This document shows, in pieces, positions 4,230 to 21,996 of a stretch of 32,000 nt of DNA. The notes under the pieces are model-generated. The model ran no database searches and had not been told where the DNA came from. It worked only from the letters and a program-made list of their open reading frames with translations. Position 1 is the stretch's first letter. Each line of letters starts with the position of its first letter. Made by a program: the position numbers and the translations under genes. Origin of the DNA: Candidatus Saccharimonadota bacterium (GTDB taxonomy: Archaea > Micrarchaeota > Micrarchaeia > Micrarchaeales > Micrarchaeaceae); NCBI GenBank assembly GCA_963705375.1, contig OY970071.1, positions 60,001 through 92,000 of the forward strand. The letters run 5' to 3'.

Positions 4230-5192
4230 CTAGCGCACTGGCTTAAGAAGCGCGATGCTAGCAAGCATGGCCTCCAGCTGTATGCGCTCGTTCGCACCCT
4301 CGACCACCCTGAAGTTGCATTCGCCTATCTCCTTTATGATTCCAAGCTTCATGCGCTCGTCAATACCTATGTTCTGCACTTCTTTGTAGCACTGCATCAG
4401 TATGTCTTCTGCGCTCATCCCGTGCATTATCATCAGTTTGTCCAGCTCGCTTCTCGCCTTCGCCATGTCTGCGGACACTGCGCACTTCAGCATCGCAACC
4501 ACCTCATCCGGCCTTGCCCTTGACGCTATGTTATACACACTTGCTTCTGTGACCTTGGTGCTCTGTATGGCTGCGCTCTGCAGCACGTTTAAGAGCTTTC
4601 TCAAATCGCCATCACTGACGTATATCAGAGCTTCCACCGCCTTGTCATCCATCTCAAGATTCTCCCCTTCTTTTATGCGCGTTATGTACCTCCTCATCTC
4701 TTCCTCTACCAAGGGCTTGAACCTGAACACCACGCACCTGCTCTGTATGGGCTCGATTATCTTGCTCGCGTAGTTTGCGCTCAGTATGAACCTCGTCTCC
4801 GCTGCAAACATCTCCATGGTCCTTCTCAACGCGTGCTGTGCATCCCCCGTAAGTGCATCCGCTTCATCAAGGAATATTATCTTCGTGGGTACGCGTGCGA
4901 CCGAGATCGTCTTTGCAAACTCTTTCACTGCGCCCCTTATGACGTCGATACCACGCTCGTCAGATGCGTTGAGCTCTTTGAATGCGCCATCAAGTTCTCC
5001 TTTGTATAGCTCGTTAGCCATGGCTACCGCACAGGTAGTCTTGCCTATGCCTGGAGGCCCTGCGAATATCATGTTCGGGAAGTTCCCTCTTGAAATGAAC
5101 GAACTGAGTCTTTCTACGATGAGTTTCTGCCCGATGACCTCCTTCAGGTTCTTCGGCCTGTACTTTTCAGTCCACGGAAGGTCCATTCTCAT
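4230..5192 (-). CDS. rfcS: Replication factor C small subunit (clamp loader)
   Basis: WTEKYRPK box, Walker A GPPGIGKTT, Walker B/DEAD-like IFLDEADALT, SRC motif (IQSRCVVFRF). The track ORF extends to 5414, but homology starts at MRMDLPWTEKYRP (ATG 5192) and A/T-rich TATA-like boxes lie 20-45 nt upstream. Confidence 0.93.
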   Translation of the reverse strand: MRMDLPWTEKYRPKNLKEVIGQKLIVERLSSFISRGNFPNMIFAGPPGIGKTTCAVAMANELYKGELDGAFKELNASDERGIDVIRGAVKEFAKTISVARVPTKIIFLDEADALTGDAQHALRRTMEMFAAETRFILSANYASKIIEPIQSRCVVFRFKPLVEEEMRRYITRIKEGENLEMDDKAVEALIYVSDGDLRKLLNVLQSAAIQSTKVTEASVYNIASRARPDEVVAMLKCAVSADMAKARSELDKLMIMHGMSAEDILMQCYKEVQNIGIDERMKLGIIKEIGECNFRVVEGANERIQLEAMLASIALLKPVR

Positions 5193-5263
5193 GCAATCAC
5201 AAGAAACAATAATATTTAGCAAAGGCATTTTAATAAGCTTTCCTAATATATTGCATTGTCCTC

Positions 5264-5336
5264 GGGGGGCTACGCTAACCTGGCAGACTACCAGCCTTGG
5301 GCGCTGGCGATCGGAGTCCAAATCTCCGGCCCCCCA
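5264..5336 (+). tRNA. tRNA-Pro (anticodon UGG)-like gene, 73 nt, with aberrant D-stem and T-loop
   Basis: Hand-folded. Acceptor GGGGGGC/GCCCCCC has 7 perfect bp plus discriminator A. Anticodon stem CCAGC/GCTGG with loop CTTGGGC (UGG, G37). T-stem CGGAG/CTCCG. D-loop AACCTGGCA contains GG. However, only 2 of 4 D-stem pairs form (CGCT vs GACT), the T-loop reads TCCAAAT (C at position 55), and the variable loop is 4 nt. No encoded CCA. Confidence 0.55.
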
Positions 5337-5565
5337 GCTCTGCTTTTTGTCGACGGAGAGTGGTTGTTTGTCGTCGATATGAGATTTGTACTCTGCTATC
5401 AATTGGCCCACCACGTCGAATGACTATGAATGGCAGTGAATGCCATCAGAACACATGAGTGCGTGCCAATGGCGCGAGTAGCAAACGAAAAACAACATAG
5501 AAAAAGATGTCCCTGTTTGAACCACTGAATGGCACAGAACGACATGCGAAAAACGCCAGGAAAAG

Positions 5566-5744: not shown

Positions 5745-7214
5745 CTATTCCTCTAGAGGCATACCTCGTATGTCCAACCTGACCGGTTGTTTCTTGGTTC
5801 TGTTTGGCTCAAAATAATTTGCTTTAGTGGCTGGTTTCTTCTTGTATTCATTTTCAAGTATGCGCTGCTGGCTGGAATATGTGTTGTCGTATAATCGGTA
5901 GCACAGGTCGCCTATTATCGTTTCACTTGCCATCATGGCATAGACGTTTGTGCCGCCTATGCGTTTTAGCTGCGCCACAGTTCTTTCTAACGTTTCCTCA
6001 TGGGTAACCGGCATGATAAAAATAACACCGCACGGCGTGTTTATGTCGCCCACAAGCACATATTTGTTTACGGGCTTATTGTCCTCTATTATGTCAGATA
6101 GAAGCTCTTGCCTGCTCTTTACGAAAGCATCACGCTTCACCCAATCCATGCAGATTATTGCGACATATCTTATTTGGGGCGTTTGCATCGTCAGCGTAAC
6201 CCTTTTTATTGTGTTGTTTGCAGTCAGTTTGTTATATGTATAATCAGACCTGCCCTTGTCAAAACCGTATTTCTTGTCTATCTTTGTGAATTCGCAACTG
6301 CCGTCGCGATTAAGTTCTCGCAGAACATGGAATTCTCTGGGAAGCAACTGCCCGGGCACTGGCCGGGAATTTTCTTTGCTCTTCTTCCATATCCTGCGTT
6401 CCAGCACGTTGAAAAACTCATCCCGTAGCGGGATATAACCGTACGTCCTATAGAAGGGTGATACGTACCACAGCGCATTGTACGACTTGAACACAGTAAG
6501 CTGAAATTCATAGAGTGCGTTTTGCGCCGCCCATTCGTAATATTTCTCGGGCAGATAATTGCTCTCAGCCACGAAATATATGAAAAGATCATATTTGCCG
6601 TGGACGGCCATTGCGAGCTGCACACGGGGAAATTTGGCCAGTTCTTTTCGCATCTCGTCGATGTTGGGAACTTTTCCTTCAAATTTCACGAATATTACAA
6701 AATCGACAAATTCCAGCTTGCTCGTATATACCTCGGACAGGTACCTGATGCCATATTTTTCTTCTATCTTCTTGACGTGGTACTCAGCTGCAGAATTGCT
6801 CATTCCTGTCATTTTGGCTATGAAAGGGACCGATGCGCGCCCGTTCATGCTGAGTATCCGGAGTATGCTCTCCTCGCTCTCGTCTATGGTCTCTTCTTGA
6901 GGTGGTCGGTCGCTGGCAAGTGCCTCATGTTTTTCACCGCGCCATATAACCTCGCCACCGTTGCGTGAAATAATGGCCTGTGCCCTCTCGAGGTCGCCCT
7001 TGATTGACGTTAGTTTCTTGACGAATGTGCCGTCCTCGGCTATTTTTCCCAGATATTTGGCAGTTATCTTCGGTCTCTTCTTTTCCTTGTCCCACTTGCC
7101 CGTCTGCCTGTAGACGTAGTAATTTCTGCCTATCTTTTTCAGCGCGAGGAATACGTCTGATTGTGTCTTCATTCGTTCGTACGTTTCCTGCACGGCTTTC
7201 GGCGCTGCTGGCAT
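5745..7214 (-). CDS. Tandem Lrp/AsnC-like transcription regulator (two HTH+RAM-like modules) with a basic N-terminal extension
   Basis: 489-aa ORF. Module 1: ILRILSMNGRASVPFIAKMTGMSNSAAEYHVKKIEEKYGI (HTH), then FVIFVKFEG...VQLAMAVHGKYDLFIYFVA (RAM-like). Module 2: FHVLRELNRDGSCEFTKIDKKYG...KLTANNTIKR, then YVAIICMDW...YVLVGDINTPCGVIFIMPV. N-terminus: GRNYYVYRQTGKWDKEKKRPKITAKYLGKI. Confidence 0.75.
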   Translation of the reverse strand: MPAAPKAVQETYERMKTQSDVFLALKKIGRNYYVYRQTGKWDKEKKRPKITAKYLGKIAEDGTFVKKLTSIKGDLERAQAIISRNGGEVIWRGEKHEALASDRPPQEETIDESEESILRILSMNGRASVPFIAKMTGMSNSAAEYHVKKIEEKYGIRYLSEVYTSKLEFVDFVIFVKFEGKVPNIDEMRKELAKFPRVQLAMAVHGKYDLFIYFVAESNYLPEKYYEWAAQNALYEFQLTVFKSYNALWYVSPFYRTYGYIPLRDEFFNVLERRIWKKSKENSRPVPGQLLPREFHVLRELNRDGSCEFTKIDKKYGFDKGRSDYTYNKLTANNTIKRVTLTMQTPQIRYVAIICMDWVKRDAFVKSRQELLSDIIEDNKPVNKYVLVGDINTPCGVIFIMPVTHEETLERTVAQLKRIGGTNVYAMMASETIIGDLCYRLYDNTYSSQQRILENEYKKKPATKANYFEPNRTKKQPVRLDIRGMPLEE

Positions 7215-7390
7215 AAAGTAATTAGTATCTAATTAGATATTTAGTTCTTATGTTAATCAGACGATAGCATAACATAAGCTATTTTGATAGATATCACGAT
7301 TATCACATAAATTCGACATATAACGCGCACAGATTCTGTTATGATTTGCACATGTCCATATATACCACGTGCGACGTATAATATGCCCGT

Positions 7391-7402
7391 GGTGGGCGAA
7401 TG
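7391..7402 (+). repeat. Copy 1 of exact 12-nt direct repeat GGTGGGCGAATG (ends in the ATG of small ORF-a)
   Basis: Identical 12-mer at 7577-7588. GGTG could pair with the archaeal 16S 3' end (anti-SD). Confidence 0.6.
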
Positions 7403-7570
7403 GAATGGGAAGATGCAGACTACAATTCAAATTCGCGTCCTGAATCAAATCCCAAGGTAAGCATTCACCCATCTTGCCACATAGGTCTCCAAACCACTTC
7501 GGCAGCGGGAGAGTCGGTCTCGCTGCCATCCCTTTTAAGGAAATCTCCGGAATTTTTAAGAATCTCTTGA
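7400..7570 (+). CDS. Candidate small ORF-a (56 aa, MEWEDADYNSNSRPESNPKVSIHPSCHIGLQTTSAAGESVSLPSLLRKSPEFLRIS)
   Basis: My own translation; it falls below the 60-aa cut-off of the track. Its start is embedded in repeat copy 1. Its stop TGA 7568-7570 overlaps ATG 7570 of the next ORF (TGATG). It contains a 7-bp hairpin (7501-7527), so an RNA role is equally possible. Confidence 0.25.
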   Translation: MEWEDADYNSNSRPESNPKVSIHPSCHIGLQTTSAAGESVSLPSLLRKSPEFLRIS

Positions 7571-7719
7571 TGCTTGGTGGGCGAATGAATCCAATAAGAT
7601 CGTGGATGGAAAGGAAGAGGCTTGCGCAGGATGCGCAGGCGAATGAGCAAAGGCCTGTGAAATGGGTCAAGGAAAGTGTGAACTCATGGAGGGTCGTGTA
7701 CTCTGACTGCGTCGAGTGA
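7570..7719 (+). CDS. Candidate small ORF-b (49 aa from ATG 7570, or 44 aa from ATG 7585: MNPIRSWMERKRLAQDAQANEQRPVKWVKESVNSWRVVYSDCVE)
   Basis: 3' part of track ORF 7474..7719. ATG 7585 is the end of repeat copy 2. Stop TGA 7717-7719 overlaps GTG 7716 of the RAM-domain ORF (GTGA). Confidence 0.3.
   Translation: MLGGRMNPIRSWMERKRLAQDAQANEQRPVKWVKESVNSWRVVYSDCVE
7577..7588 (+). repeat. Copy 2 of exact 12-nt direct repeat GGTGGGCGAATG
   Basis: Identical to 7391-7402. Ends in ATG 7585-7587 within small ORF-b. Confidence 0.6.
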
Positions 7720-8021
7720 ACGGTGCCGGTGGGTATGTGAAGAACGCAGCAAATAAAGCGAGAAGAGCGAAGCGCATCTCCGGGCGTTTCGGGTTCGTGT
7801 TCATCGATCCCAAGGAGAATGCCGATGCAAATGTTGTCGCGGAGAAACTGATTTCGATCGAGAACGTGGAAGAAGTGTTCGTCACAGAAGGCGATTACGG
7901 CTACCTGGTGAAGGTGCGCCTCGATGACGAAACGGACGGCAAGAAGTTCCTCGAGTACATGAAGCGGAATGTTTCGCCGCGGCTTGGGTCTGTCACGAGC
8001 TATTATTCGATAAAGAGGTAA
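7716..8021 (+). CDS. Stand-alone RAM (Lrp/AsnC ligand-binding, ACT-like) domain protein
   Basis: 101-aa ORF. FGFVFIDPKENADANVVAEKLISIENVEEVFVTEGDYGYLVKVRLDD fits the beta-alpha-beta-beta-alpha-beta RAM pattern with no HTH. GTG start uncertain (in-frame GTG 7737 is an alternative). Confidence 0.7.
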   Translation: MNGAGGYVKNAANKARRAKRISGRFGFVFIDPKENADANVVAEKLISIENVEEVFVTEGDYGYLVKVRLDDETDGKKFLEYMKRNVSPRLGSVTSYYSIKR

Positions 8022-8022
8022 A

Positions 8023-9072
8023 TTGTCAGCGACCATCACTGCTGCAAGAAATGACATTTATGGTGAGAAGTTGATATCAAAATCAAAGTCGTTCGTGTCT
8101 GATGCGATGGGCGTGAGTGTGCTAGTCAGAATGCCTAGCGATATAGGCGACTATTTTGCAGAGGCTCATAAGAGATACTTGCCTCCATTCCAAGAAGTGA
8201 CTGAGGACAATATGGTATCAAAACCAATGCTTGAAGTCGTCGTATCCCAAGGTCTGCCGTCAATCCACCATACCAGAAACTATACCAAAGTATATCTCTC
8301 AGAAGAATGCAATGCTGTCCGTGCCGCAGCAGATGCCACCATTGTCACGTCCAGATTTTTAGAGAGGGCGTTGAATCAACAGAGCATATATTCTGTGCAT
8401 GGTTGTGGTGTTTCTTATGAAGGAAAAAGCATACTATTCATAGGCGAGACAGGTGCCGGCAAAACGACAACTGGGCTTTATGCCTGCCTGTCCGATCCGG
8501 AACTAGGTTTTATCGGAGGCAATAGACTCTTTCTGAATGGAGATAACAAAATAATAGGCGGCGTAAGATCGATAAGCGTCAGAACGGGATCGCTCACAAC
8601 AGAATTTAGCATGTTTCCCCATGTGAAGGAGGTTGCAGCTTTCAAGGGCATAAACTGCGAACTTTCGAGCAAAAAAGTACTTATGGATCCTACTGACTTC
8701 CATATCACCACAGAGCCGGTGTATCCTTCTGAAATTTCTGCAATATTGATAGTGAAGAAAATACCCACACCGCTTTTGGTGACCAGAATAGATACAACAC
8801 AAGTGGAAGATTATTCAATTAAGGAATACCGGAGCAATTATGATGAATTTTTCAAAGTGCTTTACGAGTCCGCTGCGGAATTTAGTGAACATTTCCCTCT
8901 TGTTTTACCGGGGGCGCAGCTTCCGCATCCTGAGATTTTTTCTTATGGCATGAAGCTAAGAAGAGCAGAGTTCGTACGCACTCTTGCGGCAAAATCTTCG
9001 GTTTCACATGTAGAAGGAAACCTGAAAGATATCGGGGAATTTGCAATCAGGCTGCTTAGAGCTGGAAATTGA
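8023..9072 (+). CDS. HprK-related-kinase-like P-loop protein (HPr kinase C-terminal/PEPCK-like fold), function unknown
   Basis: 349-aa ORF. VHGCGVSYEGKSILFIGETGAGKTTTGLYACL...GFIGGNRLFL matches the H-G/A-x-x-V-x-x-x-G-x-x-x-L-x-G-x-S/T-G-x-GK-S/T-T...D/G-D/N pattern of HprK-related kinases as I recall it. TTG start lies 1 nt after the RAM gene stop (TAA 8019-8021). ATG 8107 is an alternative start. Confidence 0.6.
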   Translation: MSATITAARNDIYGEKLISKSKSFVSDAMGVSVLVRMPSDIGDYFAEAHKRYLPPFQEVTEDNMVSKPMLEVVVSQGLPSIHHTRNYTKVYLSEECNAVRAAADATIVTSRFLERALNQQSIYSVHGCGVSYEGKSILFIGETGAGKTTTGLYACLSDPELGFIGGNRLFLNGDNKIIGGVRSISVRTGSLTTEFSMFPHVKEVAAFKGINCELSSKKVLMDPTDFHITTEPVYPSEISAILIVKKIPTPLLVTRIDTTQVEDYSIKEYRSNYDEFFKVLYESAAEFSEHFPLVLPGAQLPHPEIFSYGMKLRRAEFVRTLAAKSSVSHVEGNLKDIGEFAIRLLRAGN

Positions 9073-9080
9073 TACACTAC

Positions 9081-9095
9081 GGTTCCTAGGGAACC
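9081..9095 (+). terminator. Hairpin GGTTCC-TAG-GGAACC followed by TTCTT
   Basis: 6-bp perfect stem 9 nt after the HprK-like stop. A TTCTTAAATG box then sits ~25 nt before the Nudix ATG. It could act as a terminator and/or operator. Confidence 0.3.
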
Positions 9096-9125
9096 TTCTT
9101 AAATGTGGCCTTGTAGGTTATTGTT

Positions 9126-9644
9126 ATGAAAACGCGAAACAGCACCAAAATCGTGTTTAGCGCTCCTAAATTTTTCGTAGAAGAAAGTGTTCTTACAACT
9201 GGTAAAAAACAAAGGAAACGCTATCTCATCGTGCTTAACGACACGGTTACGATCATTCCATTCACGCAGAAAAACGAGCTGATATTGGTGAAGGAATACC
9301 GCGATTCCGTGGCCAAGAATGTCTTGATGCTGCCTGGTGGGGGCATAGAAAAAGGTGAAAAGCCGAAGGGGGCAGCGTATAGGGAACTGTTAGAAGAAAC
9401 GGGCTACAAGGCAGGCAAACTGACGCTCTTTTCAAGGCTGCACCCGATATCCAAATCCATCCGCCGAACCCAGTACTATTATGTTGCAACCAACTTGACA
9501 AAATCAGAACAGGCACTCGAAGGCGATGAGAAGATCGAGGTCTTAAAGATCTCGAGAGGGAAGGCACTCGAACTCGTCAAGGCGTATGGCTTGGGTGTGT
9601 CTGAGCACAACATGGAACTTTTCCGGTTTTTGACGCATAGCTGA
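9126..9644 (+). CDS. Nudix hydrolase (ADP-ribose pyrophosphatase-like)
   Basis: Nudix box GGGIEKGEKPKGAAYRELLEETGY (Gx5Ex7REUxEExGU). Confidence 0.9.
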   Translation: MKTRNSTKIVFSAPKFFVEESVLTTGKKQRKRYLIVLNDTVTIIPFTQKNELILVKEYRDSVAKNVLMLPGGGIEKGEKPKGAAYRELLEETGYKAGKLTLFSRLHPISKSIRRTQYYYVATNLTKSEQALEGDEKIEVLKISRGKALELVKAYGLGVSEHNMELFRFLTHS

Positions 9645-9701: not shown

Positions 9702-9914
9702 ATGGTAAAGAGAGCTTTTGAGGTTGTGATAGAAAAAGATGCTGAAGGATTTTATGTCGCAGACGTGCCTGAATTGAGAGGATGCCACACCCAGGCAAAA
9801 GATCTTGATACCCTCCAGAAAAGGATAAAGGAAGTGATAGAGCTTTGCCTTGCTGATGAGAAAGAAACGGTAGTTCCAAGTGAATTTGTAGGCGTGCAGT
9901 TAGTGAGCGTTTAG
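9702..9914 (+). CDS. hicB: HicB-family antitoxin (short UPF0150 form)
   Basis: 70 aa. FEVVIEKDAEGFYVADVPELRGCHTQAKDLDTLQKRIKEVIELCL is typical of the HicB N-terminal domain. Its stop is 1 nt before the hicA ATG. TATATTTAAAT box ~35 nt upstream. Confidence 0.85.
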   Translation: MVKRAFEVVIEKDAEGFYVADVPELRGCHTQAKDLDTLQKRIKEVIELCLADEKETVVPSEFVGVQLVSV

Positions 9915-9915
9915 C

Positions 9916-10149
9916 ATGGCAAAATACAAACCCACAACCTCATTTGTGGTTATCAAGGTGCTGTTGTCCATCGGATTTACAATACTCAGAAGGAAAGGCA
10001 GCCACGTAAGATTGAGGCATCCTGATGGACGCATTACCAGTGTTCCTGCGCATGGCAAAGAGCCGATAGGGCCTGGCCTTTTGCTTCGCATCCTAAAGGA
10101 TGCAGATATCTCCAAAGATGAATTCTTTGCACTTGCAGAGAAAATTTGA
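9916..10149 (+). CDS. hicA: HicA-family mRNA-interferase toxin
   Basis: 77 aa. GFTILRRKGSHVRLRHPDGRITSVPAHGKEPIGPGLLLRILKDADISKDEF, the YcfA/HicA signature (KGSH...H...P.H....G.L..IL..). Confidence 0.9.
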   Translation: MAKYKPTTSFVVIKVLLSIGFTILRRKGSHVRLRHPDGRITSVPAHGKEPIGPGLLLRILKDADISKDEFFALAEKI

Positions 10150-10739: not shown

Positions 10740-10841
10740 AGCTGAGCTCTTCGTTTTAATGCCTTACGGGCCTGTGAAATCCCTTGCGTTTACGCATGAG
10801 GATGAAACAGGCACAGAATATTATCCCTATTTCTCGATTTG

Positions 10842-10870
10842 TCTCCAACGCGGCCGTTAGGCCGCGGAGA
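10842..10870 (+). repeat. Left-end subterminal hairpin of the IS200-type element
   Basis: TCTCCaaCGCGGCC-GTTA-GGCCGCGGAGA: a 7-bp GC stem extended by TCTCC/GGAGA across an AA bulge. It ends 10 nt before tnpA ATG 10880. Confidence 0.6.
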
Positions 10871-10879
10871 CCTGAGAAC

Positions 10880-11326
10880 ATGGATAGTGTAAACTATGAA
10901 AATAAGAACCTTGTGCACAACGCGCACTCCGTGGGTGCGAACGAATATCATCTGCAATGGGTAACAAAATACAGATATGCGACCCTTGAAAAAGAGTCGC
11001 ACTGGAAGGATTGCGATGCGGCAATCCGTTCTGCGGCAGAAAAATATAAAATCAAAATCGTAGAATTGGGCGTAATGGAAGACCCTGTTCACGTAGTTGC
11101 GGAAATTCCTCCCGAGATGTCTGTTTCTCGTGCGATAGGACTTCTGAAAGGTTCAAGTTCCTATGAACTCTTCAGAAAACACCCGAATTTTAGGAAGACA
11201 TATTGGAACGGCCATTTCTGGGGCAGGGGTTATTTTTACAGAACAGTAAGTGAGGTGACCGAAGAAACCATCAGAAATTACGTGCGCAGAGACAACAATA
11301 TGCGTCAGAAGCGACTATGTGCTTGA
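10880..11326 (+). CDS. tnpA: IS200/IS605-family Y1 (HUH) transposase TnpA
   Basis: YHLQWVTKYRY (HUH region: H-L-Q), VMEDPVHVVAEIPPEMSVSRAIGLLKGSSS, and FWGRGYFYRTVS carrying the catalytic-Tyr region. The track ORF starts at 10784, but ATG 10880 follows the left hairpin. Confidence 0.9.
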   Translation: MDSVNYENKNLVHNAHSVGANEYHLQWVTKYRYATLEKESHWKDCDAAIRSAAEKYKIKIVELGVMEDPVHVVAEIPPEMSVSRAIGLLKGSSSYELFRKHPNFRKTYWNGHFWGRGYFYRTVSEVTEETIRNYVRRDNNMRQKRLCA

Positions 11327-20173: not shown

Positions 20174-20219
20174 AGGAAGCGGCCAAGAGTGCACCGATGA
20201 TGCTTTGGCAACAAAGGAG

Positions 20220-21161
20220 ATGGAGCCGACAAAGTCAAAAACTAGGCCTTCTACTGCCGCTCCATTTGATGTGCCTGCTGTCGATGCCGAAGTGCTGAAT
20301 ATATTTAAGAAATACCAGGTCGTGTGCCATATGCGCGATTCTGATGATTTCTTCTTCCATGTTTATTCTCGGCCAGACCTTGAAAAAGAGCTAGAAGCGC
20401 TGCAAGTGAAAACGGACGTGGGTTATAAGCTGCACGTTAACGTTTCGGATGAGTGCATCCCTCAATTTCTTGACGAGGCAATAAAGTTGCTTAGCGAAAA
20501 AGGCGCAGACTTCAAAGTGATGCGGCCCAGCATGCGGGACCGCGCCTCGGAAGGGCAACAATGCAAATTACTTACGATTTTTACTAGAAGCAAGTTCCGG
20601 GCAGAAACGATAGCCTCAGATCTTGAACGCATACTCGAACCTCCGACTTGTAAATACGAATACCATAGTGGCACTATTCCATCAAATGAAATAAAGTATA
20701 ATGATTACATAACTTACAGGTACTGCAACTTCAAAGACAGCATTCTTCATAATCCTTGGAATCCTTATGAAAGAATAGACGGCTTGGAAAGCCGGTTGGG
20801 GGCAAAGTTCGCAGACTGGACCGAGCCGCTTGGCGAAACCCACATAGTTTCGCGTAGTGACGTCCTTAACGGGGCTGCAAAGTTAGGAGACATCGTGATG
20901 ATACTGAGAAGGCACGTACCTGTAAGGTTTTCAAATTGTACGTTCTTAAAAGCAGAGCTTCTGGACTATAATGCTCATCGTGACCTTCAGAACCAGATCG
21001 ATCAGAATCAAACTGCCAACATTAAAACCAAGCACCCACAAACTGTGAACTTGCTTGTCGTGGTCGATGGCCTGGATTATTTCTGGACAAACGTTCCAGT
21101 GGATTACCTAATGGCCCGTGTACCGAAAGGCATTACTTCAGACATCACTTTGGAAAACTGA
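20220..21161 (+). CDS. Stand-alone phospho-Ser/Thr-lyase-like protein (LanKC/LanL N-terminal lyase domain / HopA1-OspF-like), paralog 1
   Basis: ORF 20205..21161 (ATG 20220 or TTG 20205). Motifs in order: GYKLHVNVSDEC, DFKVMRPS, CKLLTIFT, ITYRYCNF. C-terminal module IVSRSDVLNGAAKLGDIVMIL...AELLDY...NVPVDYL. The coding call is strong; the family call rests on motif recall. Confidence 0.6.
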   Translation: MEPTKSKTRPSTAAPFDVPAVDAEVLNIFKKYQVVCHMRDSDDFFFHVYSRPDLEKELEALQVKTDVGYKLHVNVSDECIPQFLDEAIKLLSEKGADFKVMRPSMRDRASEGQQCKLLTIFTRSKFRAETIASDLERILEPPTCKYEYHSGTIPSNEIKYNDYITYRYCNFKDSILHNPWNPYERIDGLESRLGAKFADWTEPLGETHIVSRSDVLNGAAKLGDIVMILRRHVPVRFSNCTFLKAELLDYNAHRDLQNQIDQNQTANIKTKHPQTVNLLVVVDGLDYFWTNVPVDYLMARVPKGITSDITLEN

Positions 21162-21171
21162 GGCGGATTCC

Positions 21172-21996
21172 ATGCCCAATAATTACGCAAAGCCGCAAGA
21201 GTCTCTGCCCATTATCCAGCATAATTTCACCTTATGGACGGACGATAAGGTTCGCGAAGCATTCGGCGAAAAAGGCTGCAAAGAGGAAGGATCTTTTTTC
21301 ATTTCAAAAAACATGTTTTTTATTCCGGAAAGTAAGGGCGCGTTTAAAGGTTACAAAATTCATGTTAACGTTTCAGACGAGTGTGTTCTGAGCTTCCTTG
21401 AAGAATTTGTACCGAAGCTCGAAGACAAAGGTGTGGTTTTCAAAGTATGGAGGCCTAGCAAGCTTAACGACGCTGAAGCAGCAGGACAAGGTAAGCTATT
21501 GACGATCTATGCGCAAAGCAGATACGAAGCGCTGCAGATATGCGACATGCTTGAACCCTTGATTGTTAAATACCTAAACGACATCCTGCCACAACGAGAA
21601 AAAACATTAGAATCGCCAAAACATCCGAATCTAACGGGGTTTGTATCTTATCGGTATTGTACTTTCACTAAACAACCTCTCTGCGATTCTTGGCATGCCG
21701 GAATACGAATAACTGATGACGAAAGCAGGAACGGTAATAAAGCAGGATGGGCCAGAGGTCTTGACGAAATTCCTCGCATCGTTTCGCGTTTAGACGTTAT
21801 TGAAGGAAGGGCAAAAATAGGCGACATGGTGCTTCTGCAACGGCAAGGTCAGGATGTGCCTGCAGAACTTTTGGATTATGACCCTATTCGCAATACCGTT
21901 TGCGTGCTTGACATTCATGTTCTCGGCATGATCGTGCTGATGAATGCTGTGCCTGTGGATAAGTTGTCGGAGTCACTTCTGCGAAATGATCCGTGA
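21172..21996 (+). CDS. Stand-alone phospho-Ser/Thr-lyase-like protein, paralog 2
   Basis: ORF 21118..21996. ATG 21172 lies 10 nt after the paralog-1 stop and has GAGG 8 nt upstream. Motifs GYKIHVNVSDEC, VFKVWRPS, GKLLTIYA, VSYRYCTF, then IVSRLDVIEGRAKIGDMVLL...AELLDY...AVPVDKL. Confidence 0.6.
   Translation: MPNNYAKPQESLPIIQHNFTLWTDDKVREAFGEKGCKEEGSFFISKNMFFIPESKGAFKGYKIHVNVSDECVLSFLEEFVPKLEDKGVVFKVWRPSKLNDAEAAGQGKLLTIYAQSRYEALQICDMLEPLIVKYLNDILPQREKTLESPKHPNLTGFVSYRYCTFTKQPLCDSWHAGIRITDDESRNGNKAGWARGLDEIPRIVSRLDVIEGRAKIGDMVLLQRQGQDVPAELLDYDPIRNTVCVLDIHVLGMIVLMNAVPVDKLSESLLRNDP

Follow-up and report, generated by a model that had tools for sequence, protein, structure and literature searches.

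A probable cassette of two small genes and a stand-alone RAM gene facing a fused double-Lrp regulator in a micrarchaeal genome

The stretch of 32,000 nucleotides (nt) analyzed here, referred to as the window (contig OY970071.1 of assembly GCA_963705375.1, positions 60,001 to 92,000), comes from a genome placed in the Micrarchaeaceae. With moderate confidence, its segment 7356-8021 can be read as a compact cassette in which a promoter is followed by two small open reading frames (sORF1 and sORF2) and a gene for a stand-alone RAM protein, the three having a common translation-initiation region and facing the gene of a fused double-Lrp/AsnC regulator. This divergent regulator, treated as a mere boundary in an earlier note on the same DNA, is the real partner of the cassette. 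Comparison with related loci indicates that the Micrarchaeota carry a recombining, multi-copy module of which the cassette is one variant, in which stand-alone RAM proteins stand in conserved genetic pairing with fused double-Lrp proteins and whose copies have been duplicated and shuffled; this family of modules, which lies mostly outside the interpretation given in the earlier note, is the most interesting aspect of the locus. The arrangement of an Lrp gene with a stand-alone RAM gene and the small-gene operon led by Shine-Dalgarno (SD) sequences are both known already, and no new peptide-modification pathway is revealed. Should a bolder and rather doubtful reading be true, in which a double-Lrp regulator is paired with interchangeable micro-proteins (RAM-only, C2H2, zinc-ribbon and the two new cysteine-poor peptides), this host-dependent DPANN archaeon would have a regulatory architecture not described before.

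The gap between the regulator and RAM genes is not empty, as had been maintained earlier, and both of its small ORFs are conserved, with coding-type evolution, in a related metagenomic contig, L001, whose positions 429-1097 align with 7356-8021 of the window at 77% nucleotide identity. The homologue of sORF1 in L001 has 55 amino acids (aa) and 64% aa identity, with 35 of the 56 residues identical; that of sORF2 has the same length as in the window (30/44 identical, 68%), and the RAM proteins agree at 76 of 94 residues. Substitutions at the first, second and third codon positions number 15/10/21 in sORF1, 9/8/22 in sORF2 and 10/9/29 in the RAM gene, and the respective ratios of nonsynonymous to synonymous change (omega) are 0.27, about 0.05 (with dS saturated) and 0.15. 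In a permutation test conditioned on the number and type of substitutions these values correspond to p=0.002, p<5e-5 and p<5e-5, the signal of sORF1 being weaker than that of sORF2, while the other two frames of the three genes, used as controls, gave omega of 0.67-2.1. Both genomes have the ORFs intact, though a stop codon is avoided by just 17-32% of random substitution sets. The sole indel inside sORF1 is of 3 nt and there is none in sORF2 or in the RAM gene; indels of 1 nt and 5 nt lie before the sORF1 ATG and in the sORF1-sORF2 spacer, respectively. Intact frames, synonymous-biased change and frame-preserving indels, all with respect to L001, place sORF1 and sORF2 among protein-coding small ORFs. 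The exact sequence of sORF2 has already been called as a 44-aa NCBI/ENA entry (P0162 in the protein collection, on the source contig of 1,209,602 bp), and sORF1 has no entry in the NCBI/ENA protein set or in a collection of 15 billion proteins. The comparison supports the called sORF2 and adds a putative unannotated small gene, sORF1, to a DPANN genome. A degraded helix-turn-helix (HTH) domain or a single frameshifted larger gene was considered and rejected, since the three ORFs stand in differing relative frames in the window and in L001 and have no similarity to HTH, zinc-finger (ZnF) or RAM1 proteins.

The feature that joins the three genes is their start region. The 12-mer GGTGGGCGAATG occurs in exactly two exact copies in the window, each ending in the ATG of a small ORF as described earlier, with the second copy at 7576-7587 and not, as then given, at 7577-7588. 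The repeat is actually a 13-mer, TGGTGGGCGAATG, and by our own arithmetic an exact direct repeat of this length is expected about 0.006 times per 900 nt. In L001 the sORF1 copy carries a 1-nt insertion and the sORF2 copy one mismatch; the exact GGTGGGCGAATG stands there at the RAM position, its ATG being the called RAM start, in register with the degenerate third copy of the window, GGTGGGTATGTG. GGTG is complementary to the usual 3' end of archaeal 16S rRNA, and the suggestion that it serves as an SD element gains from the recurrence of the GGTG-5 nt-start geometry at the RAM and P-loop genes and from its conservation in L001. It lies 5-8 nt before the start of most small cistrons in the sister modules and is uncommon at first cistrons within the window; therefore GGTG appears to be an SD employed for internal cistrons, and the repeated 12-mer would be a common translation-initiation region composed of the GGTG SD, a 5-nt spacer and the start codon. 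In this the cassette resembles SD-led, coupled archaeal polycistrons: GGTG precedes each start by 5 nt, only short gaps of 14 and 17 nt separate the cistrons, and sORF2 and the RAM gene have a stop/start overlap, GTGA in the window and ATGA in L001. What sets it apart from them is that the 12-mer is repeated, and kept between genomes, in its entirety, spacer GGCGA included.

The stop/start junctions by which the earlier note chained these genes exist in the sequence; their role as functional starts fared less well. TGATG at 7568-7572 is not conserved, and the corresponding upstream ATG of L001 is out of frame, so the conserved start of sORF2 seems to be the ATG of the 12-mer and its conserved form the 44-aa one. 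GTGA at 7716-7719 and its ATGA counterpart in L001 are both in frame, but GTG 7737 is the likelier start of the RAM gene because it is in register with the L001 ATG and because the 17 nt that separate it from the sORF2 stop (7720-7736) are conserved less than any other part of the cassette, with 53% identity to L001. The RAM protein thus likely has 94 aa. That a RAM-only protein of about this size (101 aa as first read) is encoded was borne out by a match to PF01037 above the gathering threshold (residues 31-80, 28.1 bits with the cutoff at 25, E 1.9e-6), which is its sole match; the upstream ORFs lie in other frames and match no HTH. A paralogue with 90% identity, P0004, is encoded elsewhere on the same genome, though not by L011, the contig of the paralogous regulator P0112, and the 86-aa RAM protein of the L012 modules (RAM86) is 43% identical. 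RAM-based scans of genome, metagenome and viral contig collections, evidently without the source genome, found no loci.

Homology to L001 begins exactly at the TATA region of the cassette, 34-44 nt before ATG 7400, in agreement with the TATA-like box that had been noticed about 35-45 nt upstream; the box is kept in four related loci. Its core ATATATAC is identical in the window, L001, L008 and L011 and near-identical in the L012 and L016 modules, and the second AT-rich box GACGTATAATAT is likewise conserved in the first four, with a related sequence in L012 and L016. This second box would fit an archaeal promoter-proximal element if the transcription start lies near 7386-7389. The promoter layout of the modules is ATATATAC, 11 nt, the AT-rich box and then a G-rich GGGTG/GGTGGG stretch; a scan of viral contigs with the promoter pattern returned no loci. 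On the minus strand TAAATAT lies about 23-29 nt before the regulator ATG at 7214, and the imperfect palindrome over this TATA-like box and the 5' end of the regulator gene is a candidate autoregulatory operator. Between the two promoters the ATCAC-N5-ATCAC element, with a core ATTATCACATRAA that hardly varies, if at all, when window, L001 and L008 are aligned, is a candidate binding site for the regulator.

The 489-aa regulator consists of a beta-rich N-terminal domain (residues 1-85) and two units of winged HTH (wHTH) plus RAM (112-259 and 292-435). Pfam and NCBIfam gave HTH_AsnC, HTH_24 and LysM-like matches, and the AlphaFold2 (AF2) model (pLDDT 86.5) contains two HTH-RAM units; with Foldseek it matched first the fused double-Lrp protein NirDL (E 1.6e-12) and then many single Lrp/AsnC proteins. 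Homologues of 440-500 aa number 51, some of them publicly named AsnC regulators of Micrarchaeales or Micrarchaeaceae, and the family appears to be Micrarchaeota-wide; cluster-mates among 43-aa JGI fragments were rejected as unrelated sequences. A regulator-based scan of metagenome contigs found no loci, and in genome contigs only one full-length homologue and one match to the N-terminal domain were found. The former (L009, CAYZEE010000127.1, 35% identity) is on a 1.9-kb contig of an uncultured Gammaproteobacteria bin and probably mis-binned. The latter is a recurrence of the N-terminal beta-hairpin domain (1-85; YYVY...KWDKEKK...YLGKI) in a Nanoarchaeota metagenome-assembled genome, L010 6001-6111, in another gene context; the motif may resemble the N-termini of some IS1634-type transposases.

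The homologous neighborhoods are alike in that a double-Lrp regulator faces a chain of tiny genes (Table 1). In L012-L014 the module copies are near-identical, accompany different regulator paralogues and lie within 13-17 kb, interleaved with RHH/PIN, HEPN/nucleotidyltransferase and HicA-like genes and adjoined by a phage-type integrase, which looks like segmental duplication in a genomic island; modules thus stand beside toxin-antitoxin genes and an integrase, in variable regions. The L016 module has no P-loop kinase. Compared with L008, the window is homologous at 5749-7313 and 8040-8752 and not between, the regulator being 73% and the P-loop gene 81% identical at the nucleotide level, with sORF2 and most of sORF1 replaced. 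With L001 the reverse holds: homology is limited to 7356-8021, the regulator is very different, and promoter, sORF1, sORF2 and RAM gene are kept, followed by an unrelated 289-aa gene in place of the kinase. Given these sharp breakpoints, the cassette behaves as an exchangeable unit. In the sister modules C2H2 proteins of 25-92 aa and CxxC...CxxC proteins of 43-47 aa occupy the positions of sORF1 and sORF2; they recall the small C2H2 or CxxC zinc-finger micro-proteins of archaea, reportedly studied in Haloferax. sORF1 and sORF2 differ in having no zinc-binding motif and no detectable similarity to the sister-module proteins.

Table 1. Features of the locus and of related loci. Positions are those of the window unless a contig is named.
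Feature	Position	Strand	Remarks
Fused double-Lrp/AsnC regulator, 489 aa	5745-7214	-	divergent partner of the cassette
Imperfect palindrome, 17-nt arms	7216-7249	.	over TATA-like box and 5' end of the regulator gene
ATCAC-N5-ATCAC element ATCACGATTATCACATAAAT	7293-7312	+	conserved
Cassette TATA region CCATATATACC	7356-7366	+	core ATATATAC at 7358-7365
Second AT-rich box GACGTATAATAT	7373-7384	+	11 nt past the TATA box
12-mer, copy 1	7391-7402	+	putative SD GGTG, spacer GGCGA and sORF1 ATG; L001 counterpart GGTGTGGGGAATG
sORF1, 56 aa, acidic, Ser/Pro-rich	7400-7570	+	opened by the ATG of 12-mer copy 1
Hairpin in sORF1	7501-7527	+	10 pairs (9 in L001); TTTT comes next, at 7533-7536
12-mer, copy 2	7576-7587	+	putative SD, spacer and sORF2 ATG; L001 counterpart GGTGGGTGAATG
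sORF2, 44 aa (49 aa from 7570), basic	7585-7719	+	opened by the ATG of 12-mer copy 2
Degenerate third copy GGTGGGTATGTG	7728-7739	+	precedes the RAM gene; likely start GTG 7737
Stand-alone RAM protein, 94 aa (101 aa from GTG 7716)	7737-8021	+	PF01037
GGTG-N5-TTG, fourth such site	8062-8073	+	probable SD with start codon for the P-loop gene
PEPCK/HPr-kinase-fold P-loop protein, 333 aa (349 from TTG 8023)	8071-9072	+	putative kinase
Hairpin GGTTCC-TAG-GGAACC	9081-9095	+	between P-loop and Nudix genes; read from the sequence, not flagged by the terminator scan
Nudix hydrolase, 172 aa	9126-9644	+	PF00293; own TTAAAT box 9099-9104
P-loop and phosphohydrolase pair, window	8071-9644		Nudix
P-loop and phosphohydrolase pair, L003	L003 2364-4029		HAD
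P-loop and phosphohydrolase pair, L005	L005 6001-7619		inorganic-pyrophosphatase-like
L012-L014 chain			C2H2 65 aa, RAM 89, zinc ribbon 47, RAM 86; two or three repeats per contig
L016 chain			58 aa, RAM-like 92, zinc ribbon 43, radical-SAM-like fragments, Nudix gene
L011 chain (paralogous regulator, same genome)			remnant leader, 45-aa ORF, 25-aa C2H2 protein
L008 chain			30-aa ORF, 92-aa C2H2 protein, divergent RAM (33% identity), then P-loop gene

How such a cassette might work can be sketched from the best-known relatives. In Pyrococcus the RAM-only protein DM1 and the full-length FL11 form hetero-octamers and bind an amino-acid-like ligand (PMC2995911). The present system resembles these feast/famine regulatory proteins (FFRPs) of Pyrococcus horikoshii in that a protein of about 90 aa consisting of RAM only (a 'demi-FFRP'), its beta-alpha-beta-beta-alpha-beta domain complete, is encoded beside an Lrp-type regulator. 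It departs from them in three ways: two Lrp units are covalently fused in the regulator, which also has an additional N-terminal domain; two conserved mini-ORFs come before the RAM gene, making it the third cistron; and the multi-copy module has been shuffled among the genomes of Micrarchaeota. By analogy, the RAM-only protein would bind a small ligand and hetero-oligomerize with the RAM domains of the double-Lrp regulator, and the hetero-oligomer would alter DNA binding of the regulator at the shared intergenic region, where the palindrome and the ATCAC-N5-ATCAC element are candidate operators. The products of sORF1 and sORF2 may be accessory subunits made in matched amounts through the shared initiation region; internal cistrons would need the GGTG signal, first cistrons being mostly leaderless-looking, and the P-loop gene would be a lineage-specific downstream passenger or target gene. 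Modules of this kind offer a concrete case in which a proposal of long standing, the action of RAM-only proteins via hetero-oligomers, can be put to the test. A more elaborate and rather doubtful version would have the sORF1, sORF2 and RAM products synthesized in a fixed ratio from identical initiation regions and assembled, with the double-Lrp protein as scaffold, into a combinatorial switch that senses ligands, the spacer of the 12-mer being targeted by a shared post-transcriptional regulator. Among the fused or paired Lrp/AsnC-fold proteins of the siroheme decarboxylase NirDL / AhbA-AhbB, NirDL has the only solved fused double-Lrp architecture and is the best Foldseek match noted above; this enzyme has about 310 aa, no N-terminal domain and about 11% identity to the 489-aa protein. 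An enzymatic rather than regulatory 489-aa protein has to be kept in mind, in spite of its HTH_AsnC signatures; no heme-pathway gene was found among the window ORFs scanned.

Several observations weigh against the cassette as pictured here. sORF1 and sORF2 occur together in one independent sequence only, L001, and the coding statistics are a single pairwise comparison; hetero-oligomerization and ligand binding are proposed by analogy only. GGTG-N5-start is no general feature of window genes (17 sites, mostly internal), and conservation of the spacer GGCGA exceeds the needs of an SD. Across modules the first small ORF is not kept: it has two codons in L011 and 30 aa in L008, an argument that the sORF1 peptide may be dispensable in general. 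Within sORF1 all five synonymous sites of the conserved hairpin stem are unchanged between the window and L001, against a pS of 0.52 for the whole ORF, which hints at an RNA-level role for the hairpin.

On these grounds (a single relative, the weaker coding signal of sORF1, the unchanged synonymous stem sites and the short first ORFs of L011 and L008) a leader-peptide role of sORF1 is a serious alternative, albeit an unlikely one: translating sORF1, together with the hairpin and the T-tracts at 7533-7536 and 7553-7557, would tune transcription or translation of sORF2 and the RAM gene, whose products would be the only functional proteins. A short first ORF indeed follows the promoter in every module, varied in length (56, 55 and 30 aa, two codons, 41 and 27 aa) and in sequence. 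The context of its start, ATGGA(A/G)T(G/A)GGA, persists even where codon 3 is a stop, as in L011, which reads ATGGAATAG. The hairpin, correctly located in the earlier note, is followed by TTTT. The idea has to contend, however, with the constraint on the sORF1 peptide between the window and L001 (the low omega, the permutation result and the 3-nt indel), with a T-tract that is not kept in L001 (TTCCCTCTT) and with an RNA fold of the whole leader no better than that of shuffles (z -0.38). Comparison of the window with L001 found no compensatory changes in the hairpin, and no Rfam covariance model reached its gathering score anywhere in the window; together with the fold score this led us to reject a structured RNA. 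It is also worth mentioning that the 3' end of sORF1 contains an imperfect direct repeat, TTTTAAGGAAATCT / TTTTAAGAATCTCT (7533-7546 and 7554-7567, plus strand), with T4 and T5 tracts, which is not conserved in L001.

It is quite improbable that 7386-7715 is instead a long 5' untranslated region or a small RNA whose ORFs and 12-mer are kept by constraint at the RNA or DNA level. The missing annotation of sORF1, the conserved hairpin, the stronger conservation of promoter-proximal sequence than of the ORFs and the wholesale replacement of the region in L008 would agree with it. It leaves unexplained why it is just the ORF frames that show third-position bias and a low omega, why the ORFs stay open in both genomes, why indels preserve the frame inside the ORFs and not outside, and why an SD and a start are conserved at each ORF; moreover, sORF2 is in the genome's own annotation, and the lack of significant structure and of an Rfam match also tells against a non-coding role.

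Downstream of the cassette as favored here, the P-loop gene was described earlier as encoding an HprK-like kinase starting in the TAA-a-TTG junction at 8019-8025. The junction is present, but a start there is improbable: in the 349-aa reading residues 1-17 have pLDDT <50 and residues 21-28 form a confident strand in the AF2 model, and the first possible start of the L008 homologue, GGTGAGAATTTG, is the equivalent of TTG 8071. On this evidence TTG 8071 is probably to be preferred to TTG 8023 and to the NCBI start ATG 8107, which, with GTG 7737, corrects the likely starts of two genes. The 81%-identical P-loop homologue at L008 4267-4976 is split between frames near 4410-4422, being a pseudogene or an assembly error.

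The resemblance to HprK holds at the level of the superfamily, by profile and fold, and not at that of the family. The P-loop protein has no Pfam match, Hpr_kinase_C (PF07475) included, at E<=0.1, and its NCBIfam matches are marginal and below cutoff (TIGR00679, 14.2 bits against 240; TIGR04355, 16.1 bits against 200, E 0.0046). The family gathered by an exhaustive HMMER search comprises 98 clusters, in most of which the length is about 290-345 aa, and its profile has HPr kinase as best PDB match (E 7e-6 over 69 columns covering the S-x-H strand, Walker A and then G-x-R), with PEPCK further down. Of 42 family members, 37 match TIGR04355 (HprK-related kinase B) weakly, the best with E 1.6e-10, and 10, 6 and 4 match HprK-related kinase A, FomB and ScmC, respectively, all far below cutoff. 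The AF2 model (pLDDT 92) finds ATP-PEPCK first with Foldseek (E 6e-11, probability 1.00, TMq 0.55, about 390 columns) and superposes on it over its whole length. What the protein has in common with HprK, the HprK-related kinases A and B, ScmC and FomB is the GETGAGKTT motif with an S-x-H strand before and x-G-x-R after: Walker A and the preceding His strand, SVHGCGV...GETGAGKTT, align with SMHGVLV...GDSGVGKS of HprK, and H126, G141, G146 and K147 are invariant or nearly so in the family. The catalytic Asp179 of HprK (LIADDR), in contrast, aligns with Asn167 (FIGGNR), a position that is N, K, G or S in close relatives and D or E only in distant members, and the locus differs from those of the HprK group in having no HPr/PTS context, PqqD or lasso genes. 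The protein is therefore best modeled as a PEPCK/HprK-fold, NTP-binding protein outside every curated HprK family, and its relatives as an uncharacterized family of about 320-aa PEPCK/HprK-fold proteins, with about 100 clusters and a confident model. A literature search on ScmC and HprK-related kinase returned only unrelated acronyms.

Elsewhere this family occurs without a RAM gene or small ORFs, next to nucleotidyltransferase and HAD genes in L003 and to DUF6899 and pyrophosphatase-like genes in L005-7. In all three contexts, with L005-7 counted as one, a phosphohydrolase-type gene is next downstream on the same strand. The architecture of RAM, kinase and peptides put forward earlier did not withstand this comparison: the small ORFs and the kinase do not co-occur in L001, L008, L003, L005-7 or L016, although a precursor peptide and its tailoring enzyme would be expected to co-vary. 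It is thus very hard to credit that the HprK-like protein phosphorylates Ser/Thr of the peptides in the manner of a system for peptides that are made on the ribosome and altered after translation (RiPPs), under RAM control and with Nudix in the same pathway; the remote relation of the P-loop family to HprK-related kinases A and B, ScmC and FomB, a Ser/Thr-rich sORF1, the adjacency of RAM and kinase genes in the window and L008 and the recurrent phosphohydrolase are outweighed by L001 with peptides and no kinase, L008 with a kinase, no sORF2 and a 30-aa remnant of sORF1, L003 and L005-7 with a kinase and neither RAM nor peptides, the variable Asn167 in place of the catalytic Asp, the absence of RiPP maturation genes nearby and the promoter-like box of the Nudix gene.

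The Nudix hydrolase gene does follow the P-loop gene after a hairpin, as reported (PF00293, E 3.5e-15, 56.6 bits against a cutoff of 21.1, with the Nudix box GGGIEKGEKPKGAAYRELLEETG in the translation; NudE-like at E 1e-17, below the curated cutoff). Its membership in the chain is another matter, as it has a TTAAAT box of its own 22-27 nt before the ATG and so need not belong to the chain, being probably a separate leaderless unit. Directly 3' of it lie a HicB-like/HicA toxin-antitoxin pair (9702-10149, plus strand) and then an IS200-like Y1 transposase (10784-11326, plus strand), and the cassette locus is therefore situated in a variable stretch rich in mobile elements.

An antisense ORF of 266 aa (7257-8057, minus strand) spans the entire sORF-RAM cassette; the same strand of L001 is split into two ORFs in different frames, and the antisense ORF is most likely spurious. 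The plus-strand ORFs called opposite the small-gene operon in the Logan contig L011 may be the same artefact. The window as a whole has an archaeal look, encoding a replication factor C (RFC) small subunit and Lrp-type regulators. A TTAAAT/ATATAT box is found about 22-30 nt 5' of the ATG at many of its genes, which suggests that their mRNAs are leaderless; a sigma-70 promoter scan, irrelevant for an archaeon, had an outcome below shuffle expectation and was set aside. A tRNA-Pro (TGG) gene at 5264-5336 (plus strand) lies inside the 5' part of the RFC small-subunit ORF (4230-5414, minus strand), and the Pfam matches of this ORF begin only at residue 86, so its true start is probably downstream of the tRNA gene. 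Finally, two overlapping tandem ORFs of about 300 aa each, 20205-21161 and 21118-21996 (plus strand), match Pfam RamC_N, the N-terminal domain of the class III lanthipeptide synthetase RamC, with 27.9 bits for the first, just above the gathering score of 27, and 25.2 bits for the second, just under it.

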